From a virus (lineage: Duplodnaviria; Caudoviricetes): a stretch of DNA of 50,780 nt. The notes below the pieces were generated by a model, which worked only from the letters and a program-made list of their open reading frames with translations, had not been told where the DNA came from and did not search any database. The first letter of the stretch is position 1. The number at the start of each line of letters is the position of its first letter. The stretch spans positions 1 through 50,780 of IMG/VR virus record IMGVR_UViG_3300026097_000031; one strand, 5' to 3'. Shown here in pieces: positions 293 through 44,080 of the stretch. Made by a program: the position numbers and the translations under genes.

Positions 293-1330
293 GTCCGATT
301 CTAATGCCGTGGAAAGATTCCAATTCTTCCCGTCGGTAGAGTGCATGTACTTTCCCTTGTCCGACAGCCATATTGCCCTATCGGGACTCGCAGCAACCTT
401 TGATGAATTATTCACGTAACCCGTTTCCGGAGTGAAATCAACCTTCTCAAACGAATTTGCGTTGCCACTCAACACGAAGGAATTGTTGCCCGCTATGATC
501 GACCTGTCACCGATATTAGCCGCGCTTTGGATATCGGAAAAAGAATCGGAACAGTCTGCCAACCGCGACCAACTATTTGACGCAAACGGATCACCATTAC
601 TCTCGGCAATGGCAGTAACTGGACGCTGGCCAAGGCCAGGGGAGTAATACTGCAAAGCACACGCTCTGTTCAACTTAACGTCCCAGTAGGGGAAAGGTTT
701 CCTGAAAAGAGACGAAAGGGTTTCTGGAAAAGGTTGGCTTGCGTACAGCGTCTTATTGGCCGTGTCGTACCTCGTTACATATGTTGTTTTTTGGCCCAAG
801 ATCAACAAGTCGCCATTTGGTAAGGCAATACCGTCATTTAGATCATGGACTGTCGGTGCGTTCGGAAGTTCTAAGAAGTTCTCACCATTAAACACATGAA
901 TGGAGGTGTATTTATGGGTGGATGCATCTTTATCGACAAATATTGCGACGTCCATCCCAGGAGAATAGACTTGCAACTGCCCAACATTGCTTGGCACATC
1001 AACTTTATTCCAAGACAAACCATCTTTGCTTTCAACAATTTCTGGCCCGTACGCATAAGCAAAGACTTTTCCCCCAAGGAAAAAGGTGTTTGAAAAAAAA
1101 GCGTCGCCTAAACTTTCACCATACTTCCATTGCAGCCCGTCTGCCGAAATTGCGCTCTTTCCGTTGCCAAGTATGGCAATAAAAGTTGGCTGCACGTTTT
1201 GATAAAACTGAGTCCATTTGCCCTGGCTCAAAGCGAAACCGCCTTCTACTTCCTTCCACGATCCGCCGACATTGACAAAGGGTTTAGATTCTTGCCAATT
1301 CCCATCTGAATTTACTGGCACGCCGCTCAT
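251..1330 (-). CDS. Tail fibre / receptor-binding protein (beta-propeller-like, SxDGxxW repeats)
   Basis: N-terminal phage fibre motif ([10 protein letters not shown]...GKW), SADGLQW/SKDGLSW/STDGKNW repeats, ATG overlaps the upstream stop, visibly lower GC. Confidence 0.7.
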
Positions 1331-2667
1331 TTGATCTGCAACCAAACGTCGCCATCGCTGCCACCAGACGGGGCATCCGTAGAAACCGTGATGTTGCGCA
1401 TGCCCTTCTGCGAAGAAGAAGCCGAAGGTCCACCAGTTAAATCAGCCTTCTTGTACACGGCAGAACTCAACGCATTAACCGTGTTACCCGTATCCGTGAT
1501 CGTCGACTCATTCTCCAGAACCTTCGCGACAACATCCACGTTGTCAGCAATCAACTTCTGCTTCAGGTACACGACCTGGTCGAACGTTGCCGAACCACCA
1601 ACATGCAGCGGAGTTTCCGCAGCCTGACCATCCCGACCAATACTCACATTGTTATCGGAATCAATCTCCACCGTGCGAGTAGTCTCCGTACCAACACCAA
1701 GAGCCATATAGTCAATCGCGTTGATCGACAACCTGTCGCTGAACTTCGTCACCCACGCCTCAGTCCCCGCACCCTGGTGCGCGAACTTCACCATCGAAGC
1801 ACCATGAATCGTGTCACCCGTAGGTGACTGAACATCACCAGAGTTCACCGTCAACCCAGGACCCTCCGGATGCTGATCATTCGGACCGACACCCAGCAAA
1901 CCCATATCCGACTGAACCAAACCCAACGTCTGCGACGTTGAGTCATACGTCAACGGGGCATCAGCAGAGTTAATGCCAGCCGGGCCCTGCGGGCCCACAT
2001 CACCCTGCGGTCCACGCTGCCCCTGCGGCCCCGTCGGTCCCGTCGGGCCCGTGTCACCCTGGTTACCCTTCGGCCCAGGAACACCCTGCGGGCCCTCCGG
2101 GCCCTGCACACCACGGGGCCCCTGAGGCCCTGTCGGGCCCTCAGGACCAACCGGACCCTCCGGGCCCTTAATGTGCCCCACGTCCTCCCAAGAACCCGTA
2201 CCGTCCGTGACACCCCACGTGTACAAGTCACCCGGATCAACAACGTAATACGTGTCACCCGGCTGCATCCCCGTCATTTCCTGCAAATCAACCAGCGTCG
2301 CAACATGGCCGCGCATATAGATCCCAGGACCGATAGGTCCCCGTTGGCCCTGCTGACCCTGCGCACCAGTCGGGCCCACCGGGCCCTGCTCACCCGTGTC
2401 ACCCTTCGGGCCCTGCGGGCCCGTAGAACCAGGATCACCCTGCTTACCCTGCGGGCCAGTAGCCCCAGCCGGGCCCTGCTCACCCATTGGACCCTCAGGT
2501 CCAGCCGGGCCAGTAGCACCCGTAGAACCAGCCGGACCCTGCGGGCCGCGACCACCCTGAATGGCGGGGAACTCGCCCCGCTTCGACGGGTCCTTCAAAT
2601 CCTCAATGAACCCAACCCACTTGTTGTGTTCATCAATGTGACCGGACTGTCCGGGCTCAAACGTCAT
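1327..2667 (-). CDS. Collagen-like tail fibre protein
   Basis: Two long Gly-X-Y (GPQ/GPT/GAT) tracts; C-terminal [11 protein letters not shown] fibre motif. Confidence 0.88.
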
Positions 2668-3131: not shown

Positions 3132-4340
3132 TCAGCCGTTGGCGCAAGCCACGAGCAGACCAGCGTTGTTGTCGTACGTTTGAACGCCGAAAGTTCCGAT
3201 CCAACCCAGGCCAGCCAGGCGGTTGAACTTGTCAGTCGTCGGAGTGACAACGGTGTGCGGTTCCTCGACGACAACGTCGCCGATACCTTCCGCACCAAGG
3301 AACAGAATGTTCGCTCCGTCGGTAGGTGCAGCCTCGATGATGCTGTTCGCATCAGCGGGGATCTCGCCGCCCTTGTTCAGGCCACGGAACTGCGGCCCTT
3401 CAATGAAGCGGACACCCTCATACACGCCAACGGTTCCACGCCAAATTGGCTCGTTGGAATCGCGGTCGAGATGTGGGTACCTCCATCCAGCCACATCAGT
3501 TTCCTCACGCAGTTTGACTGCGATCTCCGGAGTGATGAACGCGTTGTACAACCCATCGGAGTACGGGGCGACACCAAGCGAACGCAGATGGGCGACGATG
3601 CGGCGAACCGAATCGGAGTCCAGCGACAGCAAAGTGTCGTTCGCGTAGTCAACAACCGCGCCACCACGGTGACCCGGCTTGATCAACCCGTGACCACCCG
3701 CATCCTTGAACATGAGGTCTTCCTTCATGTTCCCATCAGCGGTCAGAGTCGGATCACCCTTCGCGAGGATCTGCGCCTGACGGAAGCCACCATCAAGGAA
3801 GCCACCCTTCAGCGAGTACAGAGCCTCCATGTAGACAGCGTCAACCGTGTCCCGCATGTTGCGGCCCACGTACTCCGCCTGCATCGGGTTGATCTCCGTC
3901 CACGAGAAACGCTGCAACCTCTGCGTGACAACGGTGGAGTTGCCGTACTCATTGACGGTCACATCCAACTTGTCTTCCAGCGGCGGCAACGCAACCGCGT
4001 CCGGGTCCGCGTACTCAGACAGCGGAGTCTTAGCCAAACCAAGACCCTGCGCGCCCGTGCGGAACATCGACACGGTGCTGCCCGGGTAGGCAGCCTGATC
4101 GACCATCCGCACGTTGGAGAACTGGCGGTACATCGGCTCAAAGCGGAGCCGCCACCGGATCACCTTGTCGAAAGTGGCCTTAACAATAGCCATTTCGTTG
4201 TAGGCTGTGGTTGAACCAGCAGCCAAGTTAGTGTTGGGGGGGTTAACGGTTAGCGCACCGTCAACACCAACACCTGAAGCAGTTAGTTCCGGGCCGGAAC
4301 CAACACGCATGGAATCATTGAGATTCCCCTGGGCAGACAT
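3132..4340 (-). CDS. Major capsid protein (N4-gp56-like family)
   Basis: 402 aa with EYGN, LREET...W, GTVGVYEGVRFIE and DKFNR motifs; follows scaffold; RBS GGAAGGAGG. Confidence 0.88.
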   Translation of the reverse strand: MSAQGNLNDSMRVGSGPELTASGVGVDGALTVNPPNTNLAAGSTTAYNEMAIVKATFDKVIRWRLRFEPMYRQFSNVRMVDQAAYPGSTVSMFRTGAQGLGLAKTPLSEYADPDAVALPPLEDKLDVTVNEYGNSTVVTQRLQRFSWTEINPMQAEYVGRNMRDTVDAVYMEALYSLKGGFLDGGFRQAQILAKGDPTLTADGNMKEDLMFKDAGGHGLIKPGHRGGAVVDYANDTLLSLDSDSVRRIVAHLRSLGVAPYSDGLYNAFITPEIAVKLREETDVAGWRYPHLDRDSNEPIWRGTVGVYEGVRFIEGPQFRGLNKGGEIPADANSIIEAAPTDGANILFLGAEGIGDVVVEEPHTVVTPTTDKFNRLAGLGWIGTFGVQTYDNNAGLLVACANG

Positions 4341-4362
4341 GATCTGCCTCCTTCCATAAGGG

Positions 4363-4794
4363 TTAGCCGCCTTGCTTCAGGACCGCCATCAGTTCCTCCA
4401 TGTTCTCCGCCTGATCAATCCTTGTCATGATGTCCTGCGGAGGGAGACCCTGAGCGCCCTGCTCAACGGCGTTAATGCGATTAATTTCTGCAGCCGCAGG
4501 ATCTGCCTGCGGCTGGGTTGGCCCACCGAACACGTCGGCATATTCATTCAGCCAATCATCAAGAGCATCCGCCTCGATGTCCTTCGGAACGAACGCAGCA
4601 ATCTTCGGGTTTAACCCGCGCTGCTGAATGGATTCAGCGAGCGTCTGCTTACGCCGATCCGCCTCAACCTCAGCGAACTTACTAGCGAGTTCATCTCGCT
4701 CTTTCGTAAGTTCCTTGATCTTGGCACGCAACTTCTTCGGCAGGTCAGCCGAATCGTTGTCTTCATCGAACAATGCGTCGTATTCGTTAGACAC
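4363..4794 (-). CDS. Scaffolding protein
   Basis: Acidic N-terminus, coiled coil, GLNPKIAAFVP..WLNEYADVFG; immediately upstream of capsid gene. Confidence 0.78.
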   Translation of the reverse strand: MSNEYDALFDEDNDSADLPKKLRAKIKELTKERDELASKFAEVEADRRKQTLAESIQQRGLNPKIAAFVPKDIEADALDDWLNEYADVFGGPTQPQADPAAAEINRINAVEQGAQGLPPQDIMTRIDQAENMEELMAVLKQGG

Positions 4795-4844
4795 ATCAAT
4801 CACCCTTACTTCCATATCGTGATGGTTCGCCACACGTTCCACGT

Positions 4845-4920
4845 CCAGGGGAAGAGGTGGAAGAAGTGACTATCGGACTAATGACACCCACCGGGGCCGA
4901 CCGATCCGGTTGGGGAACTA
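4845..4920 (-). ncRNA. Putative structured leader RNA (H-type pseudoknot) upstream of the scaffold/capsid genes
   Basis: Stem CCCAACCGG/CCGGTGGG; loop ATCGG complementary to downstream CCGAT. Confidence 0.4.
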
Positions 4921-4935
4921 TGCGCCGTAGCGCTG

Positions 4936-5016
4936 TGGAGGTGGCGGGATTCGAACCCGCGTTCCAGGGTCTACCCTCGTGGGGTCTTGAACCCTGGTCG
5001 AAACCAATCCACCCCC
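4936..5016 (-). ncRNA. tmRNA-like RNA consisting only of the tRNA-like domain (no mRNA-like domain)
   Basis: 5' GGGGGTG-GATTGGTTTCGA (tmRNA-type stemless D-loop); acceptor stem GGGGGTG/CACCTCC with G3-U70 and A73; P2 CCAGGGT/ACCCTGG; T-arm GCGGG-TTCGAAT-CCCGC. Confidence 0.85.
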
Positions 5017-5024
5017 GGCCTGTT

Positions 5025-5792
5025 TTAACCGAACAGAATTTGTTGAGCCTTCGGACCCCAATCACCTGGGGTTGGAACATGCCACCCGTGGTCGGCCTGC
5101 CAATTGGCGACAGCCTTACGCGGGTAACTCTGGTGATATTTCACAGGTTCGCCGTGGAAATAGCCCAGGTCTTTCAACCGGCAAGCCAGCCGGTACGCAG
5201 CCAGGCTCTTCACGCCAGTCTGCTCAGCCTTAATGACGTTCTCGTATGCAGGCACTTTTCCATCCCAGTACCGGGACGGGTCATCGTTGCCATGCTGAAT
5301 ACCCTCAGAGTCAATCTTGTGCTTGCGGAGGAAAGACTCAACGTCCTTAACAGTTGTGCCCTTCTTCAACTCCCAATGCATCGGGTCATAGTTCGACCCA
5401 TGCCAGTCGCCACCCCAATTCACCAGATCGCCGTACTTGTTCTTCATGTAGGCAATACCACGGTGATGCTTCGGATGGTCACTATCGAAGAATGAGCGTG
5501 GCGCAGACATGGCACCCTCATGCGCCCAATCCAGATCAACGGCAGTACCGCTGGAATGGTTTGACCAGTTGCTGTTCAAGCGGGACTTGCGGTAGTTGTA
5601 GCCACCCTCATCCCAATGACCCCGGTCAATGCTGGTCACATGCTTGTCATAGTCATGCGCTAACGCTAGGAAAAACGGCAACACTTCCCGGCGGGTAGTC
5701 AGTTTGCGGTGGGTGCCGGGGATCTTCCCGGTGGCGAGCATGTCATGATCGCGTGGACCGATAACGCGCCAATTGTTTATTGACCTAGGCAT
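5025..5792 (-). CDS. Endolysin, peptidase M15 family with a C-terminal peptidoglycan-binding-like domain
   Basis: GGYNYR, SNHSSGTAVD, WGGDW and DPMHWE zinc-peptidase motifs. Confidence 0.88.
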   Translation of the reverse strand: MPRSINNWRVIGPRDHDMLATGKIPGTHRKLTTRREVLPFFLALAHDYDKHVTSIDRGHWDEGGYNYRKSRLNSNWSNHSSGTAVDLDWAHEGAMSAPRSFFDSDHPKHHRGIAYMKNKYGDLVNWGGDWHGSNYDPMHWELKKGTTVKDVESFLRKHKIDSEGIQHGNDDPSRYWDGKVPAYENVIKAEQTGVKSLAAYRLACRLKDLGYFHGEPVKYHQSYPRKAVANWQADHGWHVPTPGDWGPKAQQILFG

Positions 5793-5867
5793 CAGCAGGC
5801 TCCAACTCTTCCTCGTCATCCCACGTAAACGGATCCCAAATATCAGGATCCCAATCAAAAGGCCCCA

Positions 5868-6020
5868 TCAACATGGTGCTCCTTCACAGCAATGTGACTT
5901 CCACTTACATTTCGGACAAAACCAGCGATGCCACGTACCGTCATAGAAATGACCACAGTTATCGCAATGAATCAAAACCGGTTCACTCCCACGAAGATGA
6001 CTACGCACCCACTCGATCAC
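5868..6020 (-). CDS. Small Cys-rich zinc-finger protein (50 aa, below the ORF-track cutoff)
   Basis: MIEWVR...HCDNCG...FCPKC..HCC; start overlaps the upstream stop. Confidence 0.55.
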   Translation of the reverse strand: MIEWVRSHLRGSEPVLIHCDNCGHFYDGTWHRWFCPKCKWKSHCCEGAPC

Positions 6021-6083: not shown

Positions 6084-6464
6084 TCAGTCTGTTCCTTCAA
6101 CTGTCGATACTTCTCCGCCGCCGACAGGCGACTCCTCGACGGAGCCGCCTTCCTCGACGGGCTCACCGACCCCGACCGTTTCTTCGGGCTCGACTGATTC
6201 CACACGTTCTTCGCCACCAGGTGACTCCTCAATAGTCGCCGACACTTCCGGTGTCGGCTCAGGCGTTACATCCACAACCGTCTCTTCCGTCTCCGTCGCT
6301 GACGGAGACGGGCACGGGGAAGGCTCAGGGCAGTCACACACAACATCACTATTCGGACCCAAAGTTGGGCCTACTGCGCGGAACGGAATCGTTCCGGCAG
6401 TAACGAGGGAGGCAGCCCCGAACGCCACACCGAACGCAACCGCAACCGCAATCACGGTTTTCAC
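6084..6464 (-). CDS. Secreted/membrane protein with acidic Pro/Glu-rich tail
   Basis: N-terminal hydrophobic signal (AVAVAFGVAFGAASL); RBS GAGGGG. Confidence 0.6.
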   Translation of the reverse strand: MKTVIAVAVAFGVAFGAASLVTAGTIPFRAVGPTLGPNSDVVCDCPEPSPCPSPSATETEETVVDVTPEPTPEVSATIEESPGGEERVESVEPEETVGVGEPVEEGGSVEESPVGGGEVSTVEGTD

Positions 6465-6491
6465 GGGACCGCCCCCCTCTCTAGTTAGTTA

Positions 6492-6953
6492 CTACGGGGT
6501 GGTGGGATCGAAGATGACGGTAGCCATACCGTTCACTTGCTGCGCCTCAACAGCGTTGCTGAGCGTCAGCGTCCCAGGATCGGTGTCAGCCACAATGCTG
6601 TGGGAGACACTTGCGATGGACTGGTTAGCCGCATCGGTGATATCAATTTGCAGCGTCTGGGTTGCACACCCGGCAGCAGTCACATCCAGGCCAACCACGT
6701 TCACCGTGGTGATCTGGTAGTCGTTTACTGCTGCGGAATAGGTAGGCGCACCCAACTCCACTACATAACCGTCGCCGTCGCAAGTAGCGACGGCATCGGT
6801 GCTGGACACCACGGACGAAACCGTGGCCCCTCCAACAGCGGCGAAGGCAAATGCCCCCGCCCCAATTGCCAACCCACCAAGTGCGCCGACAATCGCATAA
6901 GCCCGCTTCTTACTGCGTGGCTTCTCAACATAGATGACCTGTTGATCGGTCAA
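6492..6953 (-). CDS. Secreted host-like protein, possibly TasA/CalY (SipW-class) pilin-like
   Basis: Basic N-terminus plus TM ending AFAFAA, two Cys (ATCDGDG, AGCATQ), beta-rich body; RBS GGGGAGG. Confidence 0.55.
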   Translation of the reverse strand: MTDQQVIYVEKPRSKKRAYAIVGALGGLAIGAGAFAFAAVGGATVSSVVSSTDAVATCDGDGYVVELGAPTYSAAVNDYQITTVNVVGLDVTAAGCATQTLQIDITDAANQSIASVSHSIVADTDPGTLTLSNAVEAQQVNGMATVIFDPTTP

Positions 6954-7062
6954 CTTTCCTCCCTGGGGAAGTAGGGAACTGCATTACATATTCATTTGTG
7001 TTGCCGACAGCAGGGGTAGAAGAACTACCCCCCCGCTGTCGAGCGAAGCAAAAAGGAACTAA

Positions 7063-7218
7063 CTACTTCTTGCGGCGCTTAGCCGCCGCCTTCTTAGCCC
7101 CGATAGATTCCTTACGGGAATCCCTCTTCTTCACCATCTTGCGGACATTCTTAGCCGACATCTCATCCATGCGAGCCTGCATGCCCTGCTTCTTACGGGT
7201 TGTCTTCTTCGCTGCCAT
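7063..7218 (-). CDS. Small highly basic protein
   Basis: MAAKKTTRKK..., RBS AAGGAG. Confidence 0.55.
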   Translation of the reverse strand: MAAKKTTRKKQGMQARMDEMSAKNVRKMVKKRDSRKESIGAKKAAAKRRKK

Positions 7219-7522
7219 TAGCACTCTCCTTGCTGATACTTTGACCAGAGCCAGCACCAACAGGTGGAGTAACCGGCAACTGATCTTGGACGTACATGGG
7301 CACGCTGGAGTTCCCCCTGCGAGCCCATGAAATTGCTTGCCACAAACCCGTGGCACCAGTTGCGATCAAGACAGCACGAATAAGTGCCTGGACTGCATCT
7401 TGATCAACGTTGATCTGCGGATCAACAGCGATGGCAGCCAAAACTTCGAAAGAGAAAACCGCCACCCAGACTGAAGCCCAATCAGCCAGATACCTCAAAA
7501 CTTTCGTGTTCTTCATCTTCAT
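7193..7522 (-). CDS. Membrane protein (lysis cassette)
   Basis: Two hydrophobic helices; adjacent to the holin-like gene. Confidence 0.5.
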   Translation of the reverse strand: MKMKNTKVLRYLADWASVWVAVFSFEVLAAIAVDPQINVDQDAVQALIRAVLIATGATGLWQAISWARRGNSSVPMYVQDQLPVTPPVGAGSGQSISKESANGSEEDNP

Positions 7523-7618
7523 CGACCTCAGGGGAAATGTGTTGGTCTTCGGTTTCCTCAACAACAGCAACCTCGACAGGTTCCGTCTCGCGCTCAGGCG
7601 CGAACTTCACGGCAGGGT

Positions 7619-7852
7619 TCATGACGCATCAACCCGACCGAACCGGGCATCCTTCGGATTCAACCAAGACGCAAGAACCGCTACAGCGGAAGATGCGGCA
7701 GGGATAACCCATTGCTGCCAATTATCAAACGAGAGAGTTCCCGTGTCGGACCAGTCAGCAGTCATCACCACAAGGAACGTGCCCAAGAAAACAGACAACG
7801 CATGCCCCAGCGGCGTGTTAGCCAACCAATTTTGAATCTCTTTAGGATCCAT
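7619..7852 (-). CDS. Holin-like membrane protein
   Basis: 77 aa, 2 TM segments, C-terminal WLNPKDARFG as in actinophage holins. Confidence 0.7.
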   Translation of the reverse strand: MDPKEIQNWLANTPLGHALSVFLGTFLVVMTADWSDTGTLSFDNWQQWVIPAASSAVAVLASWLNPKDARFGRVDAS

Positions 7853-7882
7853 TACTGCTCCAGTTTCGTACTTGTCGAATGC

Positions 7883-9058
7883 TTAACGCGCTTGCTTCTG
7901 CTTCAACGCGCTATTACTAATAGCGGAACTTCCCGAAAAGCGGGAACGTTCCTGACTGGCGAAACGCTTCTTACGTTGACCAGCCTCAACAGCGCCCGAC
8001 AACCCGAACGCTTCACGAATCAAATCCGCCTGACTTGCTTCCTCGCGAGCCAACGCAGCGATCCGTTCATAAGCCTTACTTTCATTCGAAACCGTTTTGA
8101 ATGTCGCAGACGACATGTCAAACGTTGAACCGAACTGAGTGCCAGCGATCTCGTCACGCAGAATGTCACTCAAACCAACACTCTGAGCCCTAGCGCCACC
8201 AGCAACATTCGCCTGAGATAGTCGCTTCTGGTACTGCGCATCCAAAGCCTCAATGGCCCGCTCCGGGTCGAGCACATACTCGACCATCTCAATATCCGTC
8301 AAACCATAAATGCTGCGCAGTTCCTGCTTAACGAAATCATTCGTGTTGTAGTTAATGAAATTCTTCGCAACGGTAACCCGGTCCGTTACTTCCTGCGGGG
8401 AAACATCGTTAACGATCCAGTCCGTGATGTCCTGATTAGTTCCCCAAATGGCTCCATCCGGAAGCCCCGATAGGGCGTTCCGGTAGCCAGACTCCAACGC
8501 CACATACGCTGCCGCTGTCGGCTCCGGGCGAGGAGGCAGACCCTGCGCGGCACGCTGCGCATTGATAGCACGCAGTTCCTTAATAGCGGGGAACCGGTTA
8601 TCGAAAGCCTTCTGATACTCCGGATCCCTCGACAAGATCGACATGATCGTGTCGGAGTCGTTATAACCCTGCTCAACGTACTTACGTACGCCACCCCACA
8701 AAGACATCAAACCGCTCGACTGGAAGAAACCTTCCATCGAAGCCAACGCAGCATTAACACGCTGCTTCTCCTGATCAGCGGCTAAACGCTCATCCTCCGC
8801 TTTACGCCAAGCACCATAATCAAAACCAGAATCCTCACCGCTAGAAGTCTCCGTCGTCCCCGCTGTTTGGACAGGGCCCCACGAGTTAGCGTGATTCACC
8901 ACAGCAGCAGCAACATTCGCGTTACCCGACTGTTGCGCATACTGGTACGCCTGCTGAGCGAAACCATCAGCAGCAGCACGATCACCACGGTTAATGGCGT
9001 TCTGCGCTGCAAGCATCACATTCTGCGCCTGCTGCGAATACCAATTGATAGCCATCAC
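7883..9058 (-). CDS. Internal virion (ejection) protein
   Basis: 391 aa helical protein in the podovirus core block. Confidence 0.6.
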   Translation of the reverse strand: MMAINWYSQQAQNVMLAAQNAINRGDRAAADGFAQQAYQYAQQSGNANVAAAVVNHANSWGPVQTAGTTETSSGEDSGFDYGAWRKAEDERLAADQEKQRVNAALASMEGFFQSSGLMSLWGGVRKYVEQGYNDSDTIMSILSRDPEYQKAFDNRFPAIKELRAINAQRAAQGLPPRPEPTAAAYVALESGYRNALSGLPDGAIWGTNQDITDWIVNDVSPQEVTDRVTVAKNFINYNTNDFVKQELRSIYGLTDIEMVEYVLDPERAIEALDAQYQKRLSQANVAGGARAQSVGLSDILRDEIAGTQFGSTFDMSSATFKTVSNESKAYERIAALAREEASQADLIREAFGLSGAVEAGQRKKRFASQERSRFSGSSAISNSALKQKQAR

Positions 9059-10071
9059 ACCACCGAACCAGGATCGTTAGAAAGGAACCCAAGATCGCGG
9101 AGGAATTTCTGCCCCGTGTTCAACAAAGTGTTCTTCCCGTTAGTTGTGTTCTGCCACTCCGAAGACTGCCGAAGAGCAGTCTCAAACTCATACAACGTCA
9201 TCGCCTTAGGAGTGCCATCCTCCGCAACACCGTTCAACGCCTTCGAAATCCACGGATCATCCAGACTCACATCGCCCCGCTCCAGCACACGCCGCATAGC
9301 CGACGTGTACGGAGAGGCAAGTTCGTTCACCGAAATACCGGCCTTAATCTTCTCACCGAAAACAGGAAACCTTTGAGCAGCCTGATCCCGAATCGTCTGC
9401 TCCCAATAGTTCTTATCCGTGTTATTGAGGGCGATAGAGTCCGCGACCTGCTTGTACCAGCCGTCACTAAACTCAACCCCGTTATTGATCGCTAAAGAAC
9501 GCAGCGAATCCAACGTGTCATCGATAGCACCCGTCGTACCCTCGACCCCTCCCGGGGCGAGGAACGACACCACAGCCTCCTGCGACCGGTTCTTATAACC
9601 GCCATAAACCCAACGGCGAACCATTTCCTTACCGGCCTCAGTATCCAAACCAAGAGAATCAACCGGGATACCAAGGTTCACCGCAGAGTTCTTAATCTCC
9701 TGCCGGGCGTTCTCTAAAGAACGCTCCCACGGCTCCCCACCTTCCTGCTCCTGCTTATATGCGGCAAGGGCGGAAGCAGTCTCATAGCCCGCGTCACGTG
9801 CCCAGTTCTTAACCGCAACTTTAAATCTTTCCGCTGACCATTCCTGGCGGACCGCCTCTTCGAATAACTCCTGCAGTTTCGGATCCGAATCGATGACAGC
9901 GACCGTGTATCCGTATTCAGCGCGAGCCGCCTCAACGGTGAACGGATCCGCCATCGGATCATCAGGGTTCTTCTCGTTGTACTTACGGACCTCTTCCTCC
10001 GTCAACAACTCATCGTTGTTCGTGTCCGCCTCAGTCTTCTTCTTCGCCTCAGGCTTCTTGTCCTCAGCCAC
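9055..10071 (-). CDS. Internal virion (ejection) protein
   Basis: 338 aa, translationally coupled to its neighbours. Confidence 0.6.
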   Translation of the reverse strand: MAEDKKPEAKKKTEADTNNDELLTEEEVRKYNEKNPDDPMADPFTVEAARAEYGYTVAVIDSDPKLQELFEEAVRQEWSAERFKVAVKNWARDAGYETASALAAYKQEQEGGEPWERSLENARQEIKNSAVNLGIPVDSLGLDTEAGKEMVRRWVYGGYKNRSQEAVVSFLAPGGVEGTTGAIDDTLDSLRSLAINNGVEFSDGWYKQVADSIALNNTDKNYWEQTIRDQAAQRFPVFGEKIKAGISVNELASPYTSAMRRVLERGDVSLDDPWISKALNGVAEDGTPKAMTLYEFETALRQSSEWQNTTNGKNTLLNTGQKFLRDLGFLSNDPGSVV

Positions 10072-11162
10072 TAGTACTCCAACTCGTTAATGACCTGCTG
10101 GAACGCATCCATGTAGGTGGTGGCTGCCGCATACTCACCAGCACCCTCCTGGCTTGCAGCCCACTTCTCAGCGAACAAAGTCGAATCGAAACCGCCAGTC
10201 TGCTCACTCGTCGACGTAGTACCCGCCTGGGAGCGGACACCCTTCGTCACCGTCTCCACCGGGTTGAACCGTTCATTACGGTTCAACTGCTTCACAAACT
10301 CCTGGATCTCACGATCAGACGCACGACGACCAAGATACGAAGCAAGCGAATCGTTCAAGATTCGCTCCGCCGTTGAAGCGTTCGTCAAGTTCAGGCTCTT
10401 CGAAACGTTCGTGAAAGCCTGCGGGCCGACACCACCAGCACCATTCGTGGCACCGCTGCCGCCGTTGCTTTGCTTCACCAACTTCCGCAAAGCCTCCTGC
10501 ACGCTTTCACCCGTGACAGCCGCCATCTGCACCGCATCCCGGAACGCGCCACGAGCCATAGCAGGGGTCACCTGATCGGTTCCCATCATTGCTTTAGCGG
10601 CAGAGTACGAAAGTTCCTCCACGCCTTTACCGGCAACGTCACCGAACGGACCCATCGCTAGCAGGTCACCCTGCGAAACGAAATTGTTTAAACCACCAGG
10701 TGCATACGCGTCACCAGACCCGAAAATGTTTCCATCTTTGCCGCCCTGGAAACCTTCAACGGAAGCCTCAATCTTGACTTTCTGAGTGGGGTTGTACTGC
10801 CCTGGCAGGTATCCCCCGGACGAAGACTGATTAACACCCTGCGCTGCTTCATCTTCCGCAGACGCTTCGTTTAAAGCAACCTCTGCGTCATCCTCACTCA
10901 TCGAAGGCAAATTCTGGCTACTGTTACCGCCTTGACCGTCGCGTGGTGTCGGAGTTCCCTCCACACTATTCGGGTTCTCCTCCGGGCCGTTAGCACCCAT
11001 GAACCGGCCAGTTGGTTGCGGGGGACCATTAGGCACCCGCACCATCTCCACGGCACCAACCGGGATACGACTCCCATCAAGATTGTCAATAGTCGGATCC
11101 GTCGGAGAAGACTCGTAAGCCTTGTTCCCATTATTGGGATCAATGTAGTAAATGTCAGCCAT
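10071..11162 (-). CDS. Internal virion protein
   Basis: 363 aa; YLGRRASDREIQEF motif; coupled to its neighbours. Confidence 0.6.
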   Translation of the reverse strand: MADIYYIDPNNGNKAYESSPTDPTIDNLDGSRIPVGAVEMVRVPNGPPQPTGRFMGANGPEENPNSVEGTPTPRDGQGGNSSQNLPSMSEDDAEVALNEASAEDEAAQGVNQSSSGGYLPGQYNPTQKVKIEASVEGFQGGKDGNIFGSGDAYAPGGLNNFVSQGDLLAMGPFGDVAGKGVEELSYSAAKAMMGTDQVTPAMARGAFRDAVQMAAVTGESVQEALRKLVKQSNGGSGATNGAGGVGPQAFTNVSKSLNLTNASTAERILNDSLASYLGRRASDREIQEFVKQLNRNERFNPVETVTKGVRSQAGTTSTSEQTGGFDSTLFAEKWAASQEGAGEYAAATTYMDAFQQVINELEY

Positions 11163-14100
11163 TAGAAACCTCCACCAAATCCTCAGTCCTCAGGTACTTG
11201 TCACCGCTGAAGAACCGACGATGCATGTAACGGAAGTCATCATTAATGTCGCCAATGTTTGACACCCGCTGCTCAACCACTCGCTTCAAAGCAGCATTCG
11301 ACTTCGCATCAATATTCCCCGAACCACCATTAGCGGCAGCCTCTTCCAACTTCTCAACAACCCAATTCCGGATCGTCACGAACTCCTGAATCGCATACAC
11401 ATACTGCTGCTGACGATTCATCTCCGTATACGGAGTGTCCTCCGGAGGGCCATACTCACGCATGAAGTCCTCATCGTTCAACACCAGATACAAAGCGTTA
11501 ACGGAGTTAACCCACCGGCCACCATTAACTTCCTGGAACTCCGCATACCACGGCTGGAACTCCTCAGACTGCGCCATCTTCGCAACAATCTTCCGCTTAG
11601 CAAGATTGATCACATCAGTAGAAGAACCACGCTGCTCAGCCAAAGCCTCAATACGAGTCACCTCAGCGTTGTACTTCTTCCAACCCAACTCGATCCGCGA
11701 ATCCGTCTCCAGCAGGCTCTCCGCAGCACCACCACGGAAAGTACGACCACCCGACCCAGGGATCGGGCGGTCCATCTGCCACGCATACACATTCGGATCG
11801 AAACCCTCGCCCGTGTTGAAAGGCTTCAACACCATGTTTATGTACTTAGCGTCCGGGCCGATAGCAGCCAACTCACCAACCAGCGGCTCAAACTTCGTTG
11901 CCGCCTCATACTCACCAAGGTCAGCAGCCATACCAGACTGGTTGCCGCTCTTCGAACGCGTGTACCGGAAGAACTCCTTGCCATACCGCTCAATGAAAAC
12001 TGCTTCCATCTCATCCAGCGACCAGCCCTCATCGAAACCCTGCTGCTGAATGGAACGCCAACCATCAATATAGAACTGGTACTTCGACTGGAACTGTGGA
12101 CTGAACGGGGCTGTAGCCGAAACAAGACTGCGGAAAGTTTGGAACTGCATCGCATCCTGAACAGCGTCCTTATACTTCGGGGGATCACCAACCCTGTCGT
12201 TCAAATCCCAATCAGTCATGCGGGTGCGGTGAATCTCCGCAGCAGCAGAAGCCAACTGGGAACTCGACTCGCCACGAAACTGCGTGATAATGCGCTTCGC
12301 CCAAGCAGGCGCATACTGCTCCACGGCAGCATCAATCAGATCCTTCTCCCGCGTAGGCTGCCCGAACGGGACAGCCCGCGAAACCAAAACCTCACCCAAC
12401 GTCCCATCAGTAACAATGGTTTCCTCATCGTTACCAAGTTTGAACGTGAAATCACCATTCGACTGAATCATCGACGTGATGTCCGGCCGGATCGCCGCAA
12501 ACCACGACAACGGCACAGAAACCAAAGGCGACGAAGTAGGGATCAACGGGAACTCACCCTGCAGCATCATGTCCACAGAACCCTTAGGAATCTTGACCGT
12601 GGATTGAGGACCGATCACGTCCTCAAACCAACCAAGATCCTCCTCCGGCACCTGGAAGAAAATGCTCGACGCATTCGAAGAACCCAGTTTCCGAACCATC
12701 GCCAACGTCGGAGACGAAGGCCCCGACACCCGCTGATTATCATCATCAACAGTCCAACCAGCACGATCCGGAGCCGAATCAACCATCGCATACCGAACCA
12801 GATTCTCCGGCCGCGTCTTCGGAACCTGATACAGCCAGAACTTCGCGGCACTAGCCCAAGCCGGGAAGAACGGAAGAATCAACCGCATCGCGTTAGCGAA
12901 AGTCGACACACGTTGAATCGTGTACAAGTTATCCCGCAAAGTAATCAACGATTCCTCGCGAGCAACACGAGCCATGTCCTCCAGCATTTGAGGAGTAAAC
13001 TCCTCAAACCCCTGCTCCGCATAGTTGTCAACCTGCTGCTGCATGCTCTCCCGGAACCTATTACGGAAGAAAGGAGAACGAGCCAACTTATCCTCAGGTA
13101 GCGTGCCAATCACGCGCATGATCCCACCGATAGCACGCTTATATAGGCCCTTGTCGTACTCGACCGCGTTCCCCAGGAACGGCTGCAGGCCAGGTCGCGG
13201 ACCAATCCGCGACCGAAGCAAATCAGCAGTCACCACCTTGTTCGGGTCCAGCATCGCCTGCTGAACCAACTCGTCAGGGAAATACGTATCAAGAATGCTG
13301 CGACGGTCAGCGAGGATCGCGACCACATCGTCACGCATACCCTCCGTCAGAGTTTCCCTCGACACAAGATCCTTGAACTCTTCAAAGTCAGGAAGTTTCC
13401 GCAAAGCGGAACGGCCACGATCTGTCTCAAACAGTTCCTGAATGATCTCGTCGTCAGTCTTCCCTTTCAGGATCCCCTCACCGATCAGGTCGTTACTGAA
13501 GTGACGCTCACCGAAGTTAGCCAAACCATTCCAGTACTCATCCGTGTAAGGCTGCAGGACCATTTCCCGCTGCGTCATCTTCATGCCGCGACCAGTCATG
13601 TCCGCCAAACCGAACATGTCCGCAGCAACACGATCATTGCTGGAAATCAACTGTTTCCACAACGAAGCCTGCTCCCCGAAAGCAGAGGGGATCTCCACCT
13701 CGCTCTGCTCGAAATCGCCATTAGGAGTTTTCGTCGTGTACTTCAACTTCTCATTCAACTGGCCGCCACTCCAAATAGCGCCGCCAGTCTTCTTACGCTT
13801 CGTCATGCGATTGTTTAAACGCTCCAGCGCCTTATCAACATTCGCTTGACGTTCCGCAACCTGAGAGTCCAGGCTCCTAGCCTGCGACTCCAAATCCTGA
13901 ATCTTCGTGTTCGTCTCGATGTAGCGATCCGACTTCGCCAACATCACCTGAGCGGCACGATCAACCTCGTCCTGAGCCAACGCCGCACCATACGCGGCAC
14001 CAGCATCGCGAGTACCAATCAACTCCGACTGTGACAGTTTCTTACCATTAGGTAAAAGAACATAGTCGAAACCATCATTGGCCATCTGCACCGCGAGGCG

Positions 14101-17100
14101 GGCCTTAGCCGCCTCCGGAATGTCCATCCCCTCCATTACGCGAGGAGCAGTATTAACATCCAGGCCGGTACGTCGAGCGATCTCTAACGCGTCAGCGTTA
14201 ACGAGATCCAACACCGGACCGACCTCATTCGCTGGAGCCTTCGACGGCATCAACTGCGGAATAGACTCTTCCGTGATCTCCGTCGCAGCGCCAGGGCGGA
14301 AGAAAACTTCCGCCTCATTCGAATGACCCATAGCCACAATGTCCCCACGACGCACCACGTAGTAACGCATCGTGTCATCCTGACCATAACCCCGGCCCTG
14401 CCAGCGAGGATCCAGCGAACCATTCACGTACGGGGCACCCGAATCCGGTGTGCCCCGGCGGGCAATAACAACCTGCTCATCGAACCCAGCGTTCCTCAAC
14501 TGCGTCTGCAACGTTTGCTTATACGTATCATCAGTCGCAGCGAAAACGAGATAGTCACCTGGGAATTCGCTGTCCAATACCCAGCCATCCATGCTGGCCT
14601 TGATGTTCTCATCCAGGAGAACATCCAAGTCATCATCGATGACAGACGCGAACTCCCTCACGGCCTCATCCGTTTGGCTAGCGCCAAGACGCTCTACCGT
14701 CTCATCAATAGTGAACACGCCAGGCTGCAAAGCCTCCTGGTTCACTTCCTCAGCAGCCTCCGACATCCAACCCGGGTAATTCGCGTCGATGTTGTTTCCG
14801 CCGTTGTAAACCTTGTCCGTCGCCAACTGCATCGAGTAGCCGCGAGGCGCGGTGAAATCAGGAGTGATGACCTTGCCGTAGCCGTTCTCCCGGGCGAACT
14901 CCAAAGCCAGTTCCTTCGTGATACCGGAACCAGTAATGGTGCTGGGATCATCAATAGCGTTAACGAGCGTTGCTGCCGGACGGGACTCCATCGGCAAAAC
15001 ACCAGAACGCAAACCAATAGGCGTTGACAGGATTTCGTCACGGCCCAACTTGGCGGACATTTGACGATCAACAAAGTCCATGTTCCGCGTCGCAGAGGAC
15101 TGCTGAATATGCGTACCGAAACGCTTTTGATGTTCAGTTGCCTGGAACATCAATTGACGCATACGGTCATTGAAAAGATTCTGCAAGTTTTGGATGGAAT
15201 CCATCATGCCCATGTCTGCGCCAGCGTCCATCCGCCACGCATCCCAATAGCGGTACAGGCGGTCACCTAACGGGCCCCCCTGTTCCACTTCACGTACGAT
15301 CCTCGTGACCAGATCATTGGCTATCCTGTCACGCATAAGGTTGACGTAATCGTCGTAGTCGTATCCCCTCTGCTGCGCCACAGCGCGCAGCAGCCTCTCA
15401 TAACCATTGTCTCTAGCGCGTTCCAAAATTGAATCGAAAGCAACCCCAGGGACTTTCCAGTCAGCGATCTCACCATGAGCGCGGTAGATACCAGATGCGC
15501 CATTATCGAACTTCGCTAACACAACACGACCGTCGTCCAATGTTCTCAAAAACATATTCTCGCCAGCCGGGCCAAGAGCATCAAAGTTCATGATCAACGC
15601 GTCTTCCGCGATCATCGTGTGAAGAACCCGATCCAAATACTGCGCCTCTTTTTCCGTCAAACCACGTGCTAAAGCCTGACCCACCGACTCGTAGGAAGAC
15701 ATGTCCTCCATGTATGACCCGTAGGCGAAACGCCGATCCGGTGTTTCGTCCGCGAATTTCACCATCGTCGACGAGCGACGTACAGGAGCAATCGAGTAAT
15801 CCAAGTCAATGAACATCTCCAGGAAACCCTGCGCAGGATCGTCATAATCCTTCACATAGAAATCCTGCAACCCAGTCGTGTCAGTCCACACGCCAGAGTT
15901 ACGCCCATACGTGTAGCCACCCAGTTGACCCTGGACACGCTCATTCATTGTCGGGAAAACGCGAGGCTGCTGACCCGTTGGCGCTTTCCACGCGGCAGCA
16001 GTCGGCACCGGGAGAGCCGTATCCTCTTCACTTAACGTGACACGGTAAACAGGGACACTCTGACCCTTAGCCTCGTTCCACTCGTCTCCAGTTTTCGTGA
16101 GTCGTACACCACGAGGCAACACAATCTCTTGCTCATAGTTGTTGCCAATGAGACGGTCGAATGACGCGTACGGGACACCAGGGTCAACATCTAAAAAGTA
16201 TTTGTAGTCAGTACCGTCAACACCAATGAACGCAGGGTTCGTGCTTGTTGACAAGTAGGCTGGGGTTGGGCTGTCCTCCAGGGCCGGGAAACCACTCTCA
16301 CGGTAAACACGCATCGGTTTAGTTCCCGCTACAACATGCGTGTTCAACGTCACGTAGTCCATGCCGGTGATCAACGGAGCCGCGAAATCATTGGCATCTA
16401 TCGGCCTGCCATCCCACAAAGCACCATTAACGTTGTCGTAACCGGAAACCTGGTACTGGTTCATGCGGTAAATGGACTGGGCTAACATGTCGAAACTGTC
16501 CTCAGCGTCGAGTGGAACTAATGCGTTCACCATGTCACGGAACTCCGTGTCATCCATCAGATGACCCTTTTCCCGTAGCCAGTCCACATACTGCGGATCC
16601 GAAATGTCCGAAAGCCGCAACTCAACTTGCTTACGAACAACCGGATCCAGTTCCGCAGCCTTCATAGTGCGGGCAATATCAACAATCAACCGTGCAGGCG
16701 GATTCGCCTCCATGCGCACACCAGGCCGGTCAGTTAAATATGTTTCCATATCCAGCCACGCTGGGGCACCATCGAAGTATTGCCACTCATCCAAGCCAGT
16801 CTCTATCTGCGACATTGGATCAAACATGTACGGTTGAACACCGCTGGTGTTTTCGTTCCAGAAAGGATCAAAGTAGCGAGGGTTGAAAAACCTCGATCCC
16901 GACTCCTTAACTTCTCGCTGGAAGTTAATATGTCCATTCTTCAGATAGGACCTGGTCGCATCTTTATGCATACGAAGAAGGTCGAAAGAGGGGCGACCCC
17001 TATCGTTAAATTTCTTATCGAAAACATCGTCCGCTTTGCTGCTGCGCAGTCGAATAACAACAGGAACCATTTCGTCCGCGTTGTACTGCGCAGCGCCAAG

Positions 17101-20100
17101 CACGCGCCGCGCACCATCAGCCAAAACCATTCGACCGTCATAACCTGACGGATCACCGAACGCGTCAATAATGATCGGCGAAGTCCACTCCGACGCTGCT
17201 GCCCGGGAAAAATCAACAGGATCCACCGTGTCGACCGTGTTGTACAGAGTATCTTCGAAGATCTCTGCCAAATGCCCGGCTTTCACATAACCGATTGCGT
17301 CGTTGTACTTCCCGTACCCACCAAGCGGGTCCGTGATACGAGTCATCTTCGGGTAATCACGGACAGGTGAAAACGTGTAAACGTCAGAATACTGATACAG
17401 GCGCTGCCACAGTTCATCCCAGTAAACACTTGGATCCATATGCACCTGGTTCCAGTTGTCACCGAAACCACCAGGACGCAAATCAAGAGTGCCACCACCG
17501 ACCTGCATCCGTGCGCCACGGATGCTGTCAATAGCATTCTCCGGAATGATGTTGATCTCATTCAAGATCGTTTCCGGGTTGCCGCCCTTCAAATAGTTCT
17601 CATCGAACCACGCCATCGGATCATGCAGAACCTCATACTTGCCGTTCTGCGCATCAATAACCCGAACCGGGATACCAGCCTGGCCACGTGTCTGATCAAG
17701 CCACCGCGACAAAGCAGTCAACTGCAAGCGAGCCTGACCTGCTGGGCTACTGTCGAACTTGTTCAGGTCTTCCTGTGTCAGCCATCCACCGACACGGAAA
17801 TCATCACGGATCGTCTCATCAACGGTTTGCCGTTGAATCGACGCGAACATGTCATCAGCGGGAAGACCCCTAACCCAGCCCGCTTCCTCCAAACCCTGCA
17901 CCAAAGCAGGATCAATCAGGACCTCATCAACGTTGTCATAGAAATCACGTCGACGTTCAATCTTCCCCTCGATCCGTTGCCACACAACGGACTCACCAGG
18001 CTGCCTACGTTTCGCCTCCTCGCGAGCAACCTTGATCGCGGACAGGCGGCGAGCCTGCGCGATCATCGCCTCACTCTTCGCCTTCTCCTCAGCGATCTTC
18101 TCCTTAACCTGGCTGCTCAACCGAATCCGGTCAGCCAAAGCAGAAGACTCAGCGTCCAAAGACTCACGCAACGCACGCATCGTGCCCTTCGTTCCATAAC
18201 GCATAGGGCCATGCACAACGAAGTTCTTCACGTTACTCAACCGGTCGGCAGCGTTCGAAGCGAGATTCACCCACTTCATGTCATTCGCTGAAGCGACACC
18301 GCGAGCGTTCTTGTAACCGGGGAACTGCGACGCATACGCCATCTCACGCAAGTTCGACTCAGCAACGTTACGCAGCGTGTAACCCAAACGCATCAAAACC
18401 AGAGGACGCCAAATCACGTCAATCGTGTTCAAGATACTTGTCGCACTCATGCCAACGTTCGACGCGGCACCCGACAAGCCACCCTTGTTGATGCGGAAAG
18501 CCTGATCGATGAAACGGAAATCAAGCAGAGGCTTACCCTCAGCGAGATCAGACTGGAACTTCGTTCCCTTCAGTTTCTCCTGAAGGTCCTTCACCACATG
18601 GATCTCGTTACTGGGTTGATCCCAATACCAGCCCCGGTCGCGGATCTGATCCGCGATCCGGTTACGCATCCGGTTCACACCCATCAGCACGTTCTCAGCC
18701 TGACTGAAATTCAAGCCATAAAACTCAGCCATCTCCATGAACATTTGCTTTTCGAAATCATCGAAAGCAGCCCAACGGGAAACCTCATCAGGTGCCGAAA
18801 GGACACGGTTGTAGAAACGATCACGGAACTGCACAGCGGTCTCCAACCGCTGCTGCTTCACCCACGCATCAAACTCGCCACTCGCAACGAACTCATCCCA
18901 CCGCTCCGGCGACATCGAATCGCGTTTCTCATTAATGGCACGCTTCGCCGAAGGCATCCAATCGCCAGCAACAGGATCAATCAAAGCATCATCAGCGACA
19001 CTCGTGGGACGGCGAGACAACTTCCGCAACAGAGGATTAGTTGTTAAAGCCGACTCCATCTCAATAAGCGACTCACGAGCGTTACGCACCTCAGCCCAGC
19101 CACGGATCCGCTTCGTACGCATGTACGAAGCGCCACCCCTAAACACGCGGATAGTGCGGCCCCACGTGCCGCCAGCCTGATACGCCTTCGAAGTCCACAA
19201 GTTCTCACCCGTGATCCGCTCATAGCGGGCACGAGCCTTACGTGACTGAGACTGGACACGAGAAGTGCCCATACTGCCGTACTTACCAACATTCAACTTA
19301 GAGATACGGACAGCACCGCGACCGCTCGCCACACCAGTAGTGAAATCCACCGCTGTACGGATCGGATCGAAAGGCTCCAGAATGTCCTGCGCCTCATCGA
19401 CCACCTTCTGCAACTGGTCATTCTGAGCGTTCAAACGCTGCAACCAGTTATCAAAATATGGGGTTAAACCACCAGGAGTGTTCGGGGAAGTGATCGACTT
19501 GCGGCGTTGAACCTCTTCGATCTCCGACAGCAACTCTGCCCGTCGAGACTGCGCATACGTCAACGCGTCAAGGGCCGTGAAGTTCTTCCCACCAATGTCG
19601 AGAGTTTGCTCATCCATACGGGCAGCGATCCGGCCGATAGCGTCCTGATCGCCACCAAGAGCCATCAAAGAATCAAACGCCTCATCAGCAGTTTTAGTGG
19701 AACCAAGAATGTCAGCGACCAAAGCCGGGTTCGAAGAATCCAATGCGATCTCATGCTGAGCCATGTACGTTTTCGGAGTGGCAGCGATCTCCATCGACAA
19801 GTCATAAATAGCGGTACGTCGCCCAGCCTCACCAGCAGTCTCCGCGAACGACTTACCCAACTCGAACTGGGCACGGGCCTTCGTCCGATCCTTCAAAGAA
19901 GTCATCCACACCGTGGTCAACTTCTGGGCACCCTTACCGGCGACCTTGAAAGCAAGCACCTCAGGTGCCAGCCACCACGCCACGGCAGCATCCAAACCAC
20001 CAGAAATCCAGCGGCCCCAACCTTGATCGGTTGCGGACTCCAACTGGCGCATGTCGCTAATATCGAACTCTGATGACAAACCAATGTTCGCGGAATACAT

Positions 20101-20922: not shown

Positions 20923-21070
20923 CCTGCTCACCAGCCAAAAACGCCAAAACCGTATCCCGGTCCTGCGGCGATTCCCATTGCACCTGAGCCAAAGCGAAAA
21001 CAATCGGCGAATACGTCAAACCAAGCGCATCCACGCCAGCAGCCACATTCTCAACAAAGTCAGCATTCAT
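20915..21070 (-). CDS. Small hypothetical protein (51 aa)
   Basis: MNADFVENVAAGVDALGL...; fills the gap and is coupled on both sides. Confidence 0.55.
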   Translation of the reverse strand: MNADFVENVAAGVDALGLTYSPIVFALAQVQWESPQDRDTVLAFLAGEQGG

Positions 21071-26766: not shown

Positions 26767-26792
26767 AAACAACAACCGATTGTGAGGCAATC

Positions 26793-44076: not shown

Positions 44077-44080
44077 CAAC

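Follow-up and report, generated by a model that had tools for sequence, protein, structure and literature searches.

A conserved phage gene for a transfer-messenger RNA reduced to its tRNA-like domain

What use would a phage have for the head of a transfer-messenger RNA (tmRNA) alone? The question is raised by an 81-nt element in the Caudoviricetes genome IMGVR_UViG_3300026097_000031, a complete, linear IMG/VR virus record (CheckV 100%) of 50,780 nucleotides which was analysed over its whole length and is referred to below as the window. The element lies at 4936..5016 on the minus strand, and had been proposed in a first-pass annotation, made from the sequence alone, to be a phage-encoded tmRNA consisting of the tRNA-like domain (TLD) only. 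This identification is upheld by an end-to-end match to the tmRNA family of Rfam and by covariation across a family of phage sequences. It is a real and conserved phage gene whose product retains only the TLD of tmRNA, and is termed a mini-tmRNA here. Trans-translation serves bacteria as a quality-control pathway and is, according to PMC8363625, a proposed antibiotic target; a natural 80-nt phage RNA which mimics only the tmRNA head would, if the reading developed below is true, represent a ready-made competitor of it. The mini-tmRNA family probably interferes with the host rescue-and-tagging system.

The Rfam model RF00023, searched with Infernal as had been suggested at first pass, matches the window at 5016..4933 with 63.0 bits (gathering threshold 47; E 2.4e-22). 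The alignment extends from the first to the last position of the model (1-374), with 290 central positions, which comprise the pseudoknots and the tag frame, replaced by 3 nt. A covariance model of our own, R1, for which the window and four IMG/VR relatives were used but not the mycobacteriophage DS6A discussed below, scores the element at 94 bits. ARAGORN reported neither tRNA nor tmRNA nor tag peptide over the 50,780-nt window, a silence which is expected for the mini-tmRNA because the tag frame is absent.

In RNA orientation, from 5016 to 4936 on the minus strand, the element reads GGGGGUG-GAUUGGUUUCGA-CCAGGGU-UCAAG-ACCCCACGAGGGU-AG-ACCCUGG-AAC-GCGGGUUCGAAUCCCGC-CACCUCC-A (Table 1). The parts described in the first-pass annotation, namely a 7-bp acceptor stem with the G3-U70 pair and discriminator A73, a D loop without a stem, and a perfect P2 helix capped by a tiny hairpin, are borne out both by direct reading and by folding. 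The canonical tRNA-like fold has an energy of -37.2 kcal/mol against an unconstrained minimum of -38.8 kcal/mol, and folding as stable was reached in only four of 200 shuffles. The G3:U70 pair is the determinant for alanyl-tRNA synthetase (AlaRS), and SmpB contacts tmRNA at A15/U17/A334 and at G19, as described in PMC8363625. Equivalents of U17, G19 and A334 are present in the window mini-tmRNA and conserved in the family, those of E. coli U17 and G19 being assigned to the D-loop analogue by a putative mapping of positions. The claim that CCA is not encoded holds for the complete triplet but not for its first nucleotide, since C74 is templated (ACAG). A tetraloop hairpin, GCGC-UACG-GCGC, starts 2 nt past the discriminator within the 93-nt spacer to the next open reading frame (ORF), and no U-tract stands behind it.

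There is no mRNA-like domain. The 27 nt between the P2 strands contain no resume codon, tag frame or stop, the pseudoknot ring PK1-PK4 is absent, and a 13-nt hairpin closes P2. Lacking these ~290 positions, the RNA can therefore neither tag a protein nor supply a stop codon. Other identities for the element were considered and rejected. An acceptor piece of a two-piece (permuted) tmRNA would not have its 5' and 3' ends in the standard order with P2 closed within one molecule, and no match to the permuted, alpha, beta or cyano tmRNA models was found in the window at E<=1. A tRNA-Ala is contradicted by the absence of an anticodon arm and D stem and of any ARAGORN tRNA call, and by the R1 scores of true phage tRNA-Ala genes, 27-41 bits versus 94. 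A UAA following the 5' strand of P2, considered as the stop of a zero-length tag, proved frequent and not conserved (UCAAG in the window, GAAAG in the capsid-gene relative L002, GGAAA in others); in tmRNA, moreover, the P2 helix faces away from the decoding centre.

Relatives were collected from IMG/VR in two pattern scans. The first, anchored on the acceptor stem (GGGGNTG-N35-65-GGTTCGANTCCNNNCANCTCCA), returned at least 119 stretches. Its pattern fixes the acceptor stem and T loop, which are thus uninformative in the resulting set, and the second scan therefore took just the D-loop analogue and the T loop as anchors (GGTTTCGAC...GGTTCGANTCC), returning at least 120 stretches. Together the scans hold, as a lower bound, more than 130 distinct mini-tmRNA look-alikes. 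The first scan, with five relative loci added, comprises at least 125 pattern matches, 58 of which ARAGORN calls tRNA (52 of these tRNA-Ala); the 67 remaining matches, representing 58 distinct sequences, score 44-95 bits on R1, in comparison with the 27-41 bits of the tRNA-Ala controls. The covariation in related phages to which the first-pass annotation had looked is present. In a model alignment of 53 sequences 93.2% of cells are paired versus 66.7% in shuffles, a level reached by none of 500 shuffles, and compensatory, two-sided changes occur in 7/7 P2 pairs and in 3/5 T-stem pairs, the latter stem being 100% paired in the family.

The second scan yielded 100 distinct matches, 92 of them with at least six of the seven acceptor pairs (among the matches listed); G3:U70 is found in 87 of these 92, A73 in 89 and an encoded CCA in 21, whilst 62 fall outside the pattern of the first scan. 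When 77 distinct sequences, gathered without any constraint on the acceptor stem, were aligned to the model, G1:C72 was present in 77/77, G2:C71 in 76/77 and G3:U70 in 77/77, while pairs 4, 5, 6 and 7 showed two-sided changes in 32, 29, 27 and 3 sequences, respectively. A G3:U70 wobble which never drifts to G:C or A:U within an otherwise freely covarying stem bears the signature of selection for AlaRS recognition. These figures are to be read with the knowledge that the model itself contains G3:U70, that the alignments are fitted to the model and that kinship inflates the shuffle statistics. In a MAFFT alignment (A2) analysed with RNAalifold, P2 was misaligned and only the acceptor and T stems were recovered; model-based alignments were used for this reason, and they lean towards the model's structure. 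As judged from these alignments, the fold of the mini-tmRNA is under purifying selection, and by the same comparison so are the alanine identity set and the SmpB-contact nucleotides.

Other conserved features are less readily assigned a role. A C directly follows the discriminator in 95% (alignment A5) and 98% (A4) of family members; the near-universal templating of C74, despite a full CCA in only about a quarter of mini-tmRNAs, suggests a shared rule of 3'-end maturation. Conservation in A4 and A5 reaches 96-100% for the linker A (GGAC/GAAC) that corresponds to E. coli A334, and an A-rich linker followed by a CCNC-A-NG-NGG mini-hairpin recurs in DS6A and many members. Most mini-tmRNAs are solitary, a tRNA gene lying within 500 nt in only 23 of 143 loci. 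The strict mini pattern is found in at least 12 of 236 gathered viral loci, plus the window, and in only three contigs of a 596-Gb genome collection, all of them contigs of 20-50 kb from metagenome-assembled genomes (MAGs). The mini-tmRNA is common in uncultured phages and nearly absent from 185,579 species genomes.

The phages nearest to the window illustrate this conservation at a single genomic position. A search of IMG/VR with the capsid protein gave three relatives, with 67, 43 and 40% identity, and in each of the three a mini-tmRNA lies before the scaffold-like gene, 570-700 nt ahead of the capsid gene. Those of L002 (2553-2633) and L003 (3227-3308) score 45.6 and 36.1 bits against the Rfam tmRNA model; that of L004 (3278-3377) is a 100-nt variant scoring 37 bits on R1, in which the acceptor has become GGGCAUG/CAUGUCC with G3:U70 retained. 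This most distant capsid relative has a 32-nt insert where the mini-hairpin would be. P2 differs yet pairs across the window and its relatives, as CCAGGGU/ACCCUGG, CCCAGAUG/CAUCUGGG and CCGACU/AGUCGG. Among cultured phages, the 50,697 records searched by blastn with window positions 3500-7500 contained no match, and tblastn of the capsid protein gave 31 records, all below 60% identity and 29 of them Streptomyces phages. The nearest are Streptomyces podophages of the Beephvirinae, at ~32-34% identity. Two of these, Manuel (locus L129, 1536-3401) and Immanuel3 (L130, 1378-3326), whose capsid proteins are ~32% identical to that of the window, have 19 and 22 tRNA genes, respectively, in arrays followed directly by an ORF of 163-176 aa and then the capsid gene; the 159-aa scaffold-like protein of the window is weakly similar to the pre-capsid ORF of Manuel (E 4e-06). 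The mini-tmRNA of this lineage, within the late operon, therefore occupies the place of its relatives' tRNA array. A search for prophage copies with the capsid protein in the genome-contig collection gave 23 pattern stretches and no confirmed relative.

Table 1. Features of the mini-tmRNA gene and its genomic surroundings, in window coordinates
Feature	Position	Strand	Basis and remarks
Mini-tmRNA (TLD-only) gene	5016..4936	minus	81 nt; RNA 5' G1 = 5016, discriminator A73 = 4936; Rfam, own model and relatives
Acceptor stem, 5' strand GGGGGUG	5010..5016	minus	7 bp with 4937-4943; G3 = 5014
Acceptor stem, 3' strand CACCUCC	4937..4943	minus	U70 = 4939; read directly and Rfam
D-loop analogue GAUUGGUUUCGA, without D stem	4998..5009	minus	Aligned to Rfam consensus GGaUUCGAC
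P2, 5' strand CCAGGGU	4991..4997	minus	Perfect 7 bp with 4964-4970
A-rich linker UCAAG	4986-4990	minus	Precedes inner hairpin
Inner mini-hairpin ACCC-CACGA-GGGU	4973..4985	minus	13 nt; folding; placed by Infernal on upper P2 of tmRNA
P2, 3' strand ACCCUGG	4964..4970	minus	Followed by linker AAC (4961-4963), middle A = E. coli A334 equivalent
T arm GCGGG-UUCGAAU-CCCGC	4944..4960	minus	Rfam alignment
Templated C74	4935	minus	Rest of CCA not encoded; genome reads A-CAG
Hairpin GCGC-UACG-GCGC in 3' trailer	4922..4933	minus	Fold of 93-nt trailer
3282-aa ORF	21003..11155	minus	No Pfam match at E<=0.001
Several PHROG-only proteins	11162..6084	minus	PHROG
Endolysin, Peptidase_M15_4	5858..5025	minus	Pfam E 6.4e-06; PHROG 1512 endolysin E 1.2e-15; upstream of RNA
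159-aa scaffold-like protein	4842..4363	minus	phrog_7813; downstream of RNA
Major capsid protein	4340..3132	minus	PHROG 1357 E 1.1e-32; Pfam Phage_capsid_3
Collagen-like tail fibre	2667..1327	minus	Pfam and PHROG
Tyrosine integrase	42459-43898	plus (opposite to RNA)	37 kb from the RNA
Type II hammerhead ribozyme	27026-27100	plus	Rfam RF02276, 39.7 bits versus cut-off 37

The 50.8-kb genome contains capsid, terminase, tail-fibre and endolysin genes. The mini-tmRNA follows the endolysin closely, as had been noted at first pass: the TAA stop occupies 5027..5025 and the RNA begins at the 9th base beyond it. Neither a sigma-70-like promoter nor an intrinsic terminator was detected around the gene on the minus strand, so that co-transcription with the late genes and tRNA-type processing is the simplest reading. 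No SmpB gene was found in the phage genome. The 3282-aa ORF makes up a fifth of the genome and lies upstream of the structural genes. Past the integrase gene, the non-coding stretch 43900-44320 contains a 16-bp inverted repeat (44083-44118) and is a likelier place for a phage attachment site (attP) than the mini-tmRNA. The first-pass annotation had counted two hammerhead ribozymes and linked the mini-tmRNA to a phage which makes cleaved mRNAs and may use recoding. Rfam finds only one hammerhead in the window, even at E<=1, located right at the beginning of an ORF of the GP88 family (27008-28009), where two gene blocks diverge. Five CTGATGAG cores occur in the window; two places inspected gave nothing, and two gapped patterns were too narrow to recover even the known hammerhead. 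With one hammerhead only, the proposed link finds no support.

The close resemblance of the element to bacterial tmRNAs requires separate consideration, since it might be thought that the element is only an attP core or a relic, that is, a piece of host ssrA kept for integration or caught by imprecise excision and not an RNA gene. The last 25 nt of the mini-tmRNA occur in at least 120 genome contigs, at least 101 times inside full-length tmRNAs called by ARAGORN (~350 nt, with normal tags), once in a tRNA-Ala and 18 times in uncalled sequence. Many titles of the contigs with this identical end, taken irrespective of a tmRNA call, denote Actinomycetota MAGs, and the 5' end has 18 of 20 nt in common with the closest of these tmRNAs (among the matches listed). 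The TLD part is thus, on its sequence, a close copy of real and probably actinobacterial tmRNAs, and an actinobacterial-type TLD together with actinophage-like proteins suggests the host group. A tyrosine integrase is indeed encoded by the phage, and the identity of the 25-nt end to so many ssrA 3' ends is what an attachment core would show; this identity is, however, to be expected in any case if the TLD is conserved. The integrase lies 37 kb from the mini-tmRNA (~12 kb if the genome is circular), the distances in two relatives with an integrase match are ~16 and ~13 kb, and one phage with a mini and a completeness of 100% (record of locus L006) gave no integrase match. No second copy of the 25-nt core was found in the window. 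When the core is lengthened by 5 nt on the P2 side, the resulting 30-mer is absent from the 185,579 species genomes searched, a collection in which the strict pattern is confined to the three MAG contigs mentioned above. Furthermore, the element has both TLD ends, and its 5' half, P2 and acceptor strands covary, which DNA identity with a host site would not require. The reading as only an attP core, which the first-pass annotation had itself named as the alternative that would undo its proposal, is largely refuted by these observations and retains a negligible probability. A recent origin by deletion from host ssrA is likewise not supported, given the unmatched 30-mer and the divergence seen in one Mycobacterium MAG. 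This assembly (loci L135, G001:C5, and L132, G001:C175) contains a full tmRNA of 368 nt (141 bits) together with a mini of 81 nt (66 bits), the latter on a contig of 50 kb whose binning is uncertain; acceptor pair 5 and the T stem are not the same in the two RNAs.

How might such an RNA act? The first-pass annotation had suggested titration of SmpB, rescue without tagging, or a decoy for RNase toxins. We favour, at about even strength with its alternatives taken together, the reading that the mini-tmRNA is an alanine-charged mimic which would draw SmpB and stalled ribosomes away from host tmRNA. The RNA would be co-transcribed with the lysis and head genes and would be cut out by host tRNA-processing enzymes, with RNase P acting at G1 and 3' trimming proceeding to C74 or A73. 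The CCA-adding enzyme would complete the 3' end, host AlaRS would charge the RNA with alanine, and the product may then bind host SmpB and EF-Tu. In competing with full-length tmRNA for SmpB and stalled ribosomes, it would block ssrA tagging and the coupled proteolysis and mRNA decay late in infection. Such a role as competitor or inhibitor, which we infer, agrees with the account in PMC4131195, citing Mao et al. 2009, that a TLD-like molecule, whether chargeable or not, strongly inhibits tmRNA, perhaps via SmpB titration. The alanine identity set stays fixed in a stem whose adjacent pairs covary, which predicts a function that includes charging. In the sole published test, as cited, inhibition did not require charging.

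Several points weigh against the competitor. Since inhibition in the account of PMC4131195 is independent of chargeability, titration of SmpB alone would leave the strict G3:U70 and A73 unexplained, and a step on the ribosome, either block or release, is indicated. Because CCA is not encoded, function depends on the host CCA-adding enzyme. The gain to a phage from shutting down tagging at this late stage is conjectural, and neither the conserved inner hairpin nor the conserved C74 is explained by competition. Finally, among datasets matching a 1.6-kb stretch no RNA dataset is listed; the four rows are of DNA type, one with 0.80 of the words. The conserved chargeability suggests that the mini-tmRNA may also act on the ribosome itself, either blocking stalled ribosomes or freeing them without tagging by way of codon-independent release.

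The last of these possibilities may be extended to a productive, tag-less rescue, in which the alanine-charged RNA with host SmpB and EF-Tu would enter ribosomes that have halted on damaged mRNAs of phage or host, and take over the chain, so that ribosomes are recycled and proteins left unmarked. As the mini-tmRNA has no stop codon, release would fall to a codon-independent factor of ArfB/ArfA type, or to drop-off and peptidyl-tRNA hydrolase. The strict alanine identity (G3:U70 in 77/77, A73 in 89/92) speaks for such a role, and the conserved C74 with CCA encoded in 21/92 argues for the importance of charging and, through it, of delivery to the ribosome; organellar tmRNAs without a coding sequence (CDS), accompanied by SmpB, are thought in PMC11915505 to help with incomplete mRNAs. 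Yet a peptidyl-TLD is not known to have any route of release, inhibition and not rescue was the published outcome when a similar molecule was tested (as given in PMC4131195), and no Arf-like gene turned up in the phage, though no search was aimed at Arf. Productive rescue is therefore regarded as possible but doubtful. The strictly kept G3:U70 and A73, the near-universal C74, the A-rich linker and the CCNC-A-NG-NGG hairpin may also be read together as marks of a charged, ribosome-entering RNA rather than a passive SmpB sponge. This would belong to a phage-wide system that releases stalled ribosomes without tagging, with one alanine added, or locks them, the hairpin serving as the binding site of a still unknown host or phage partner; we advance this broader proposal only tentatively, as a rather unlikely one.

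An action in cis must also be weighed. Here the element would be punctuation or a stability element, either an RNase P or 3'-processing site that splits the endolysin from the scaffold-capsid message or a protective 3' end, and the freed RNA would be functionless. The start of the RNA at the 9th base past the endolysin stop on the same strand, the lack of a promoter-like or terminator-like site nearby on that strand, and the location in the relatives' tRNA-array slot would all fit. RNase P, however, needs neither G3:U70 and A73 nor the SmpB-contact nucleotides nor a tmRNA D-loop analogue, and all of these are conserved; moreover the L002 gene lies ~500 nt from its upstream ORF, and the gene context in DS6A is different. 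This makes a purely cis-acting role improbable. More improbable still is a decoy or spare part, by which the RNA would sequester some factor of the host that targets tmRNA or tRNA-Ala, such as an anti-phage nuclease, or another alanyl-RNA-using enzyme. It is favoured only by the mimicry itself, the TLD part being nearly identical to actinobacterial tmRNAs, and it is purely speculative, with no associated gene seen in the Pfam and PHROG scans of the window. We know of no nuclease of this type for tmRNA.

The competitor reading can be set against what is known of related systems, of which the closest is DS6A. The first-pass annotation had pointed to a mycobacteriophage precedent, and the precedent is real: 'Mycobacterium phage DS6A (TLD only)' stands in the tmRNA list of PMC4131195 (Hudson, Lau & Williams 2014), and is repeated in PMC11915505, with the tmRNA database entry Phage__Mycobacterium.9. 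R1, searched over 26500-30500 of JN698994, finds an 83-nt match at 28478-28560 (locus L131, 1979-2061) with 67.9 bits and E 5.4e-14; the RNAs of the window and of DS6A are therefore homologous, in phages of unrelated lineages. In the GenBank record of DS6A no feature is annotated between gp33 and gp34, where the TLD-only tmRNA lies. The TLD-only phage tmRNA is thus, as a kind, already published, and the window adds a member of a common, little-studied family. For this reason the window alone is of modest value; the family-level results, namely the invariant alanine identity, C74 and the inner hairpin, are more useful than the single instance.

No paper was found in the literature under the names 'mini-tmRNA' or 'TLD-only' tmRNA, and the supplementary tables of PMC4131195 and PMC11915505 may list more CDS-less phage tmRNAs. 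Other papers examined on phage tmRNAs treat full-length or two-piece genes. Four unannotated matches of the element in blastn against cultured phages were examined, and proved to be full-length or permuted tmRNAs and not minis. Unannotated permuted or two-piece tmRNAs are present in Xanthomonas phage Rb1 (103 bits), Alcaligenes phage QDWS595 (111) and Acinetobacter phage BUCT628 (124; loci L252, L253 and L255, respectively), and Mycobacterium phage Nanosmite (L254) has an unannotated one-piece tmRNA of 111.5 bits as well as a GOLLD RNA of 192 bits which ends beside a 'tRNA-OTHER' feature.

The DS6A RNA resembles that of the window in being phage-encoded and ~80 nt long, with G3:U70 and A73, a tmRNA D-loop analogue, a T arm and no tag frame. 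Both have a P2 of 6-7 bp closed by an A-rich linker and a CCNCACGNGG-type mini-hairpin, and the hairpin design CCGCACGCGG is shared. The two differ in acceptor pairs 5-7 and in the T stem, and the phages differ too: DS6A belongs to the Hnatkovirus lineage and has its RNA between gp33 and a DNA polymerase III gene, whereas the window phage has its RNA between endolysin and scaffold/capsid genes, a 3282-aa ORF, and a capsid distantly Beephvirinae-like. The canonical one-piece tmRNA (RF00023, e.g. the ~350-nt genes of Actinomycetota MAGs) has the entire tRNA-like domain in common with the mini-tmRNA, but possesses PK1-PK4, a resume codon and a tag frame, for which the mini-tmRNA lacks the ~290 positions.

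The CDS-less organellar tmRNAs described in PMC11915505, from jakobid mitochondria and from two Mallomonadaceae plastids (genes of ~65 bp), likewise consist of the tRNA-like domain only and obtain SmpB from elsewhere; they co-occur with SmpB. These genes, however, replace a resident tmRNA, whereas the window RNA would be brought by a virus into a cell with a full tmRNA of its own. Laboratory TLD fragments, namely those of Mao et al. 2009 as cited in PMC4131195 and the truncated tmRNA of the tmRNA-SmpB-EF-Tu ribosome crystal structure as cited in PMC8363625, combine a TLD with a short P2 as the window element does. According to these accounts, a TLD with a short P2 suffices for binding of SmpB and EF-Tu and for A-site entry (PMC8363625), and for inhibition of tmRNA in vivo (PMC4131195). 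Those fragments are engineered or truncated constructs, unlike the element of the window, which is a natural phage gene.

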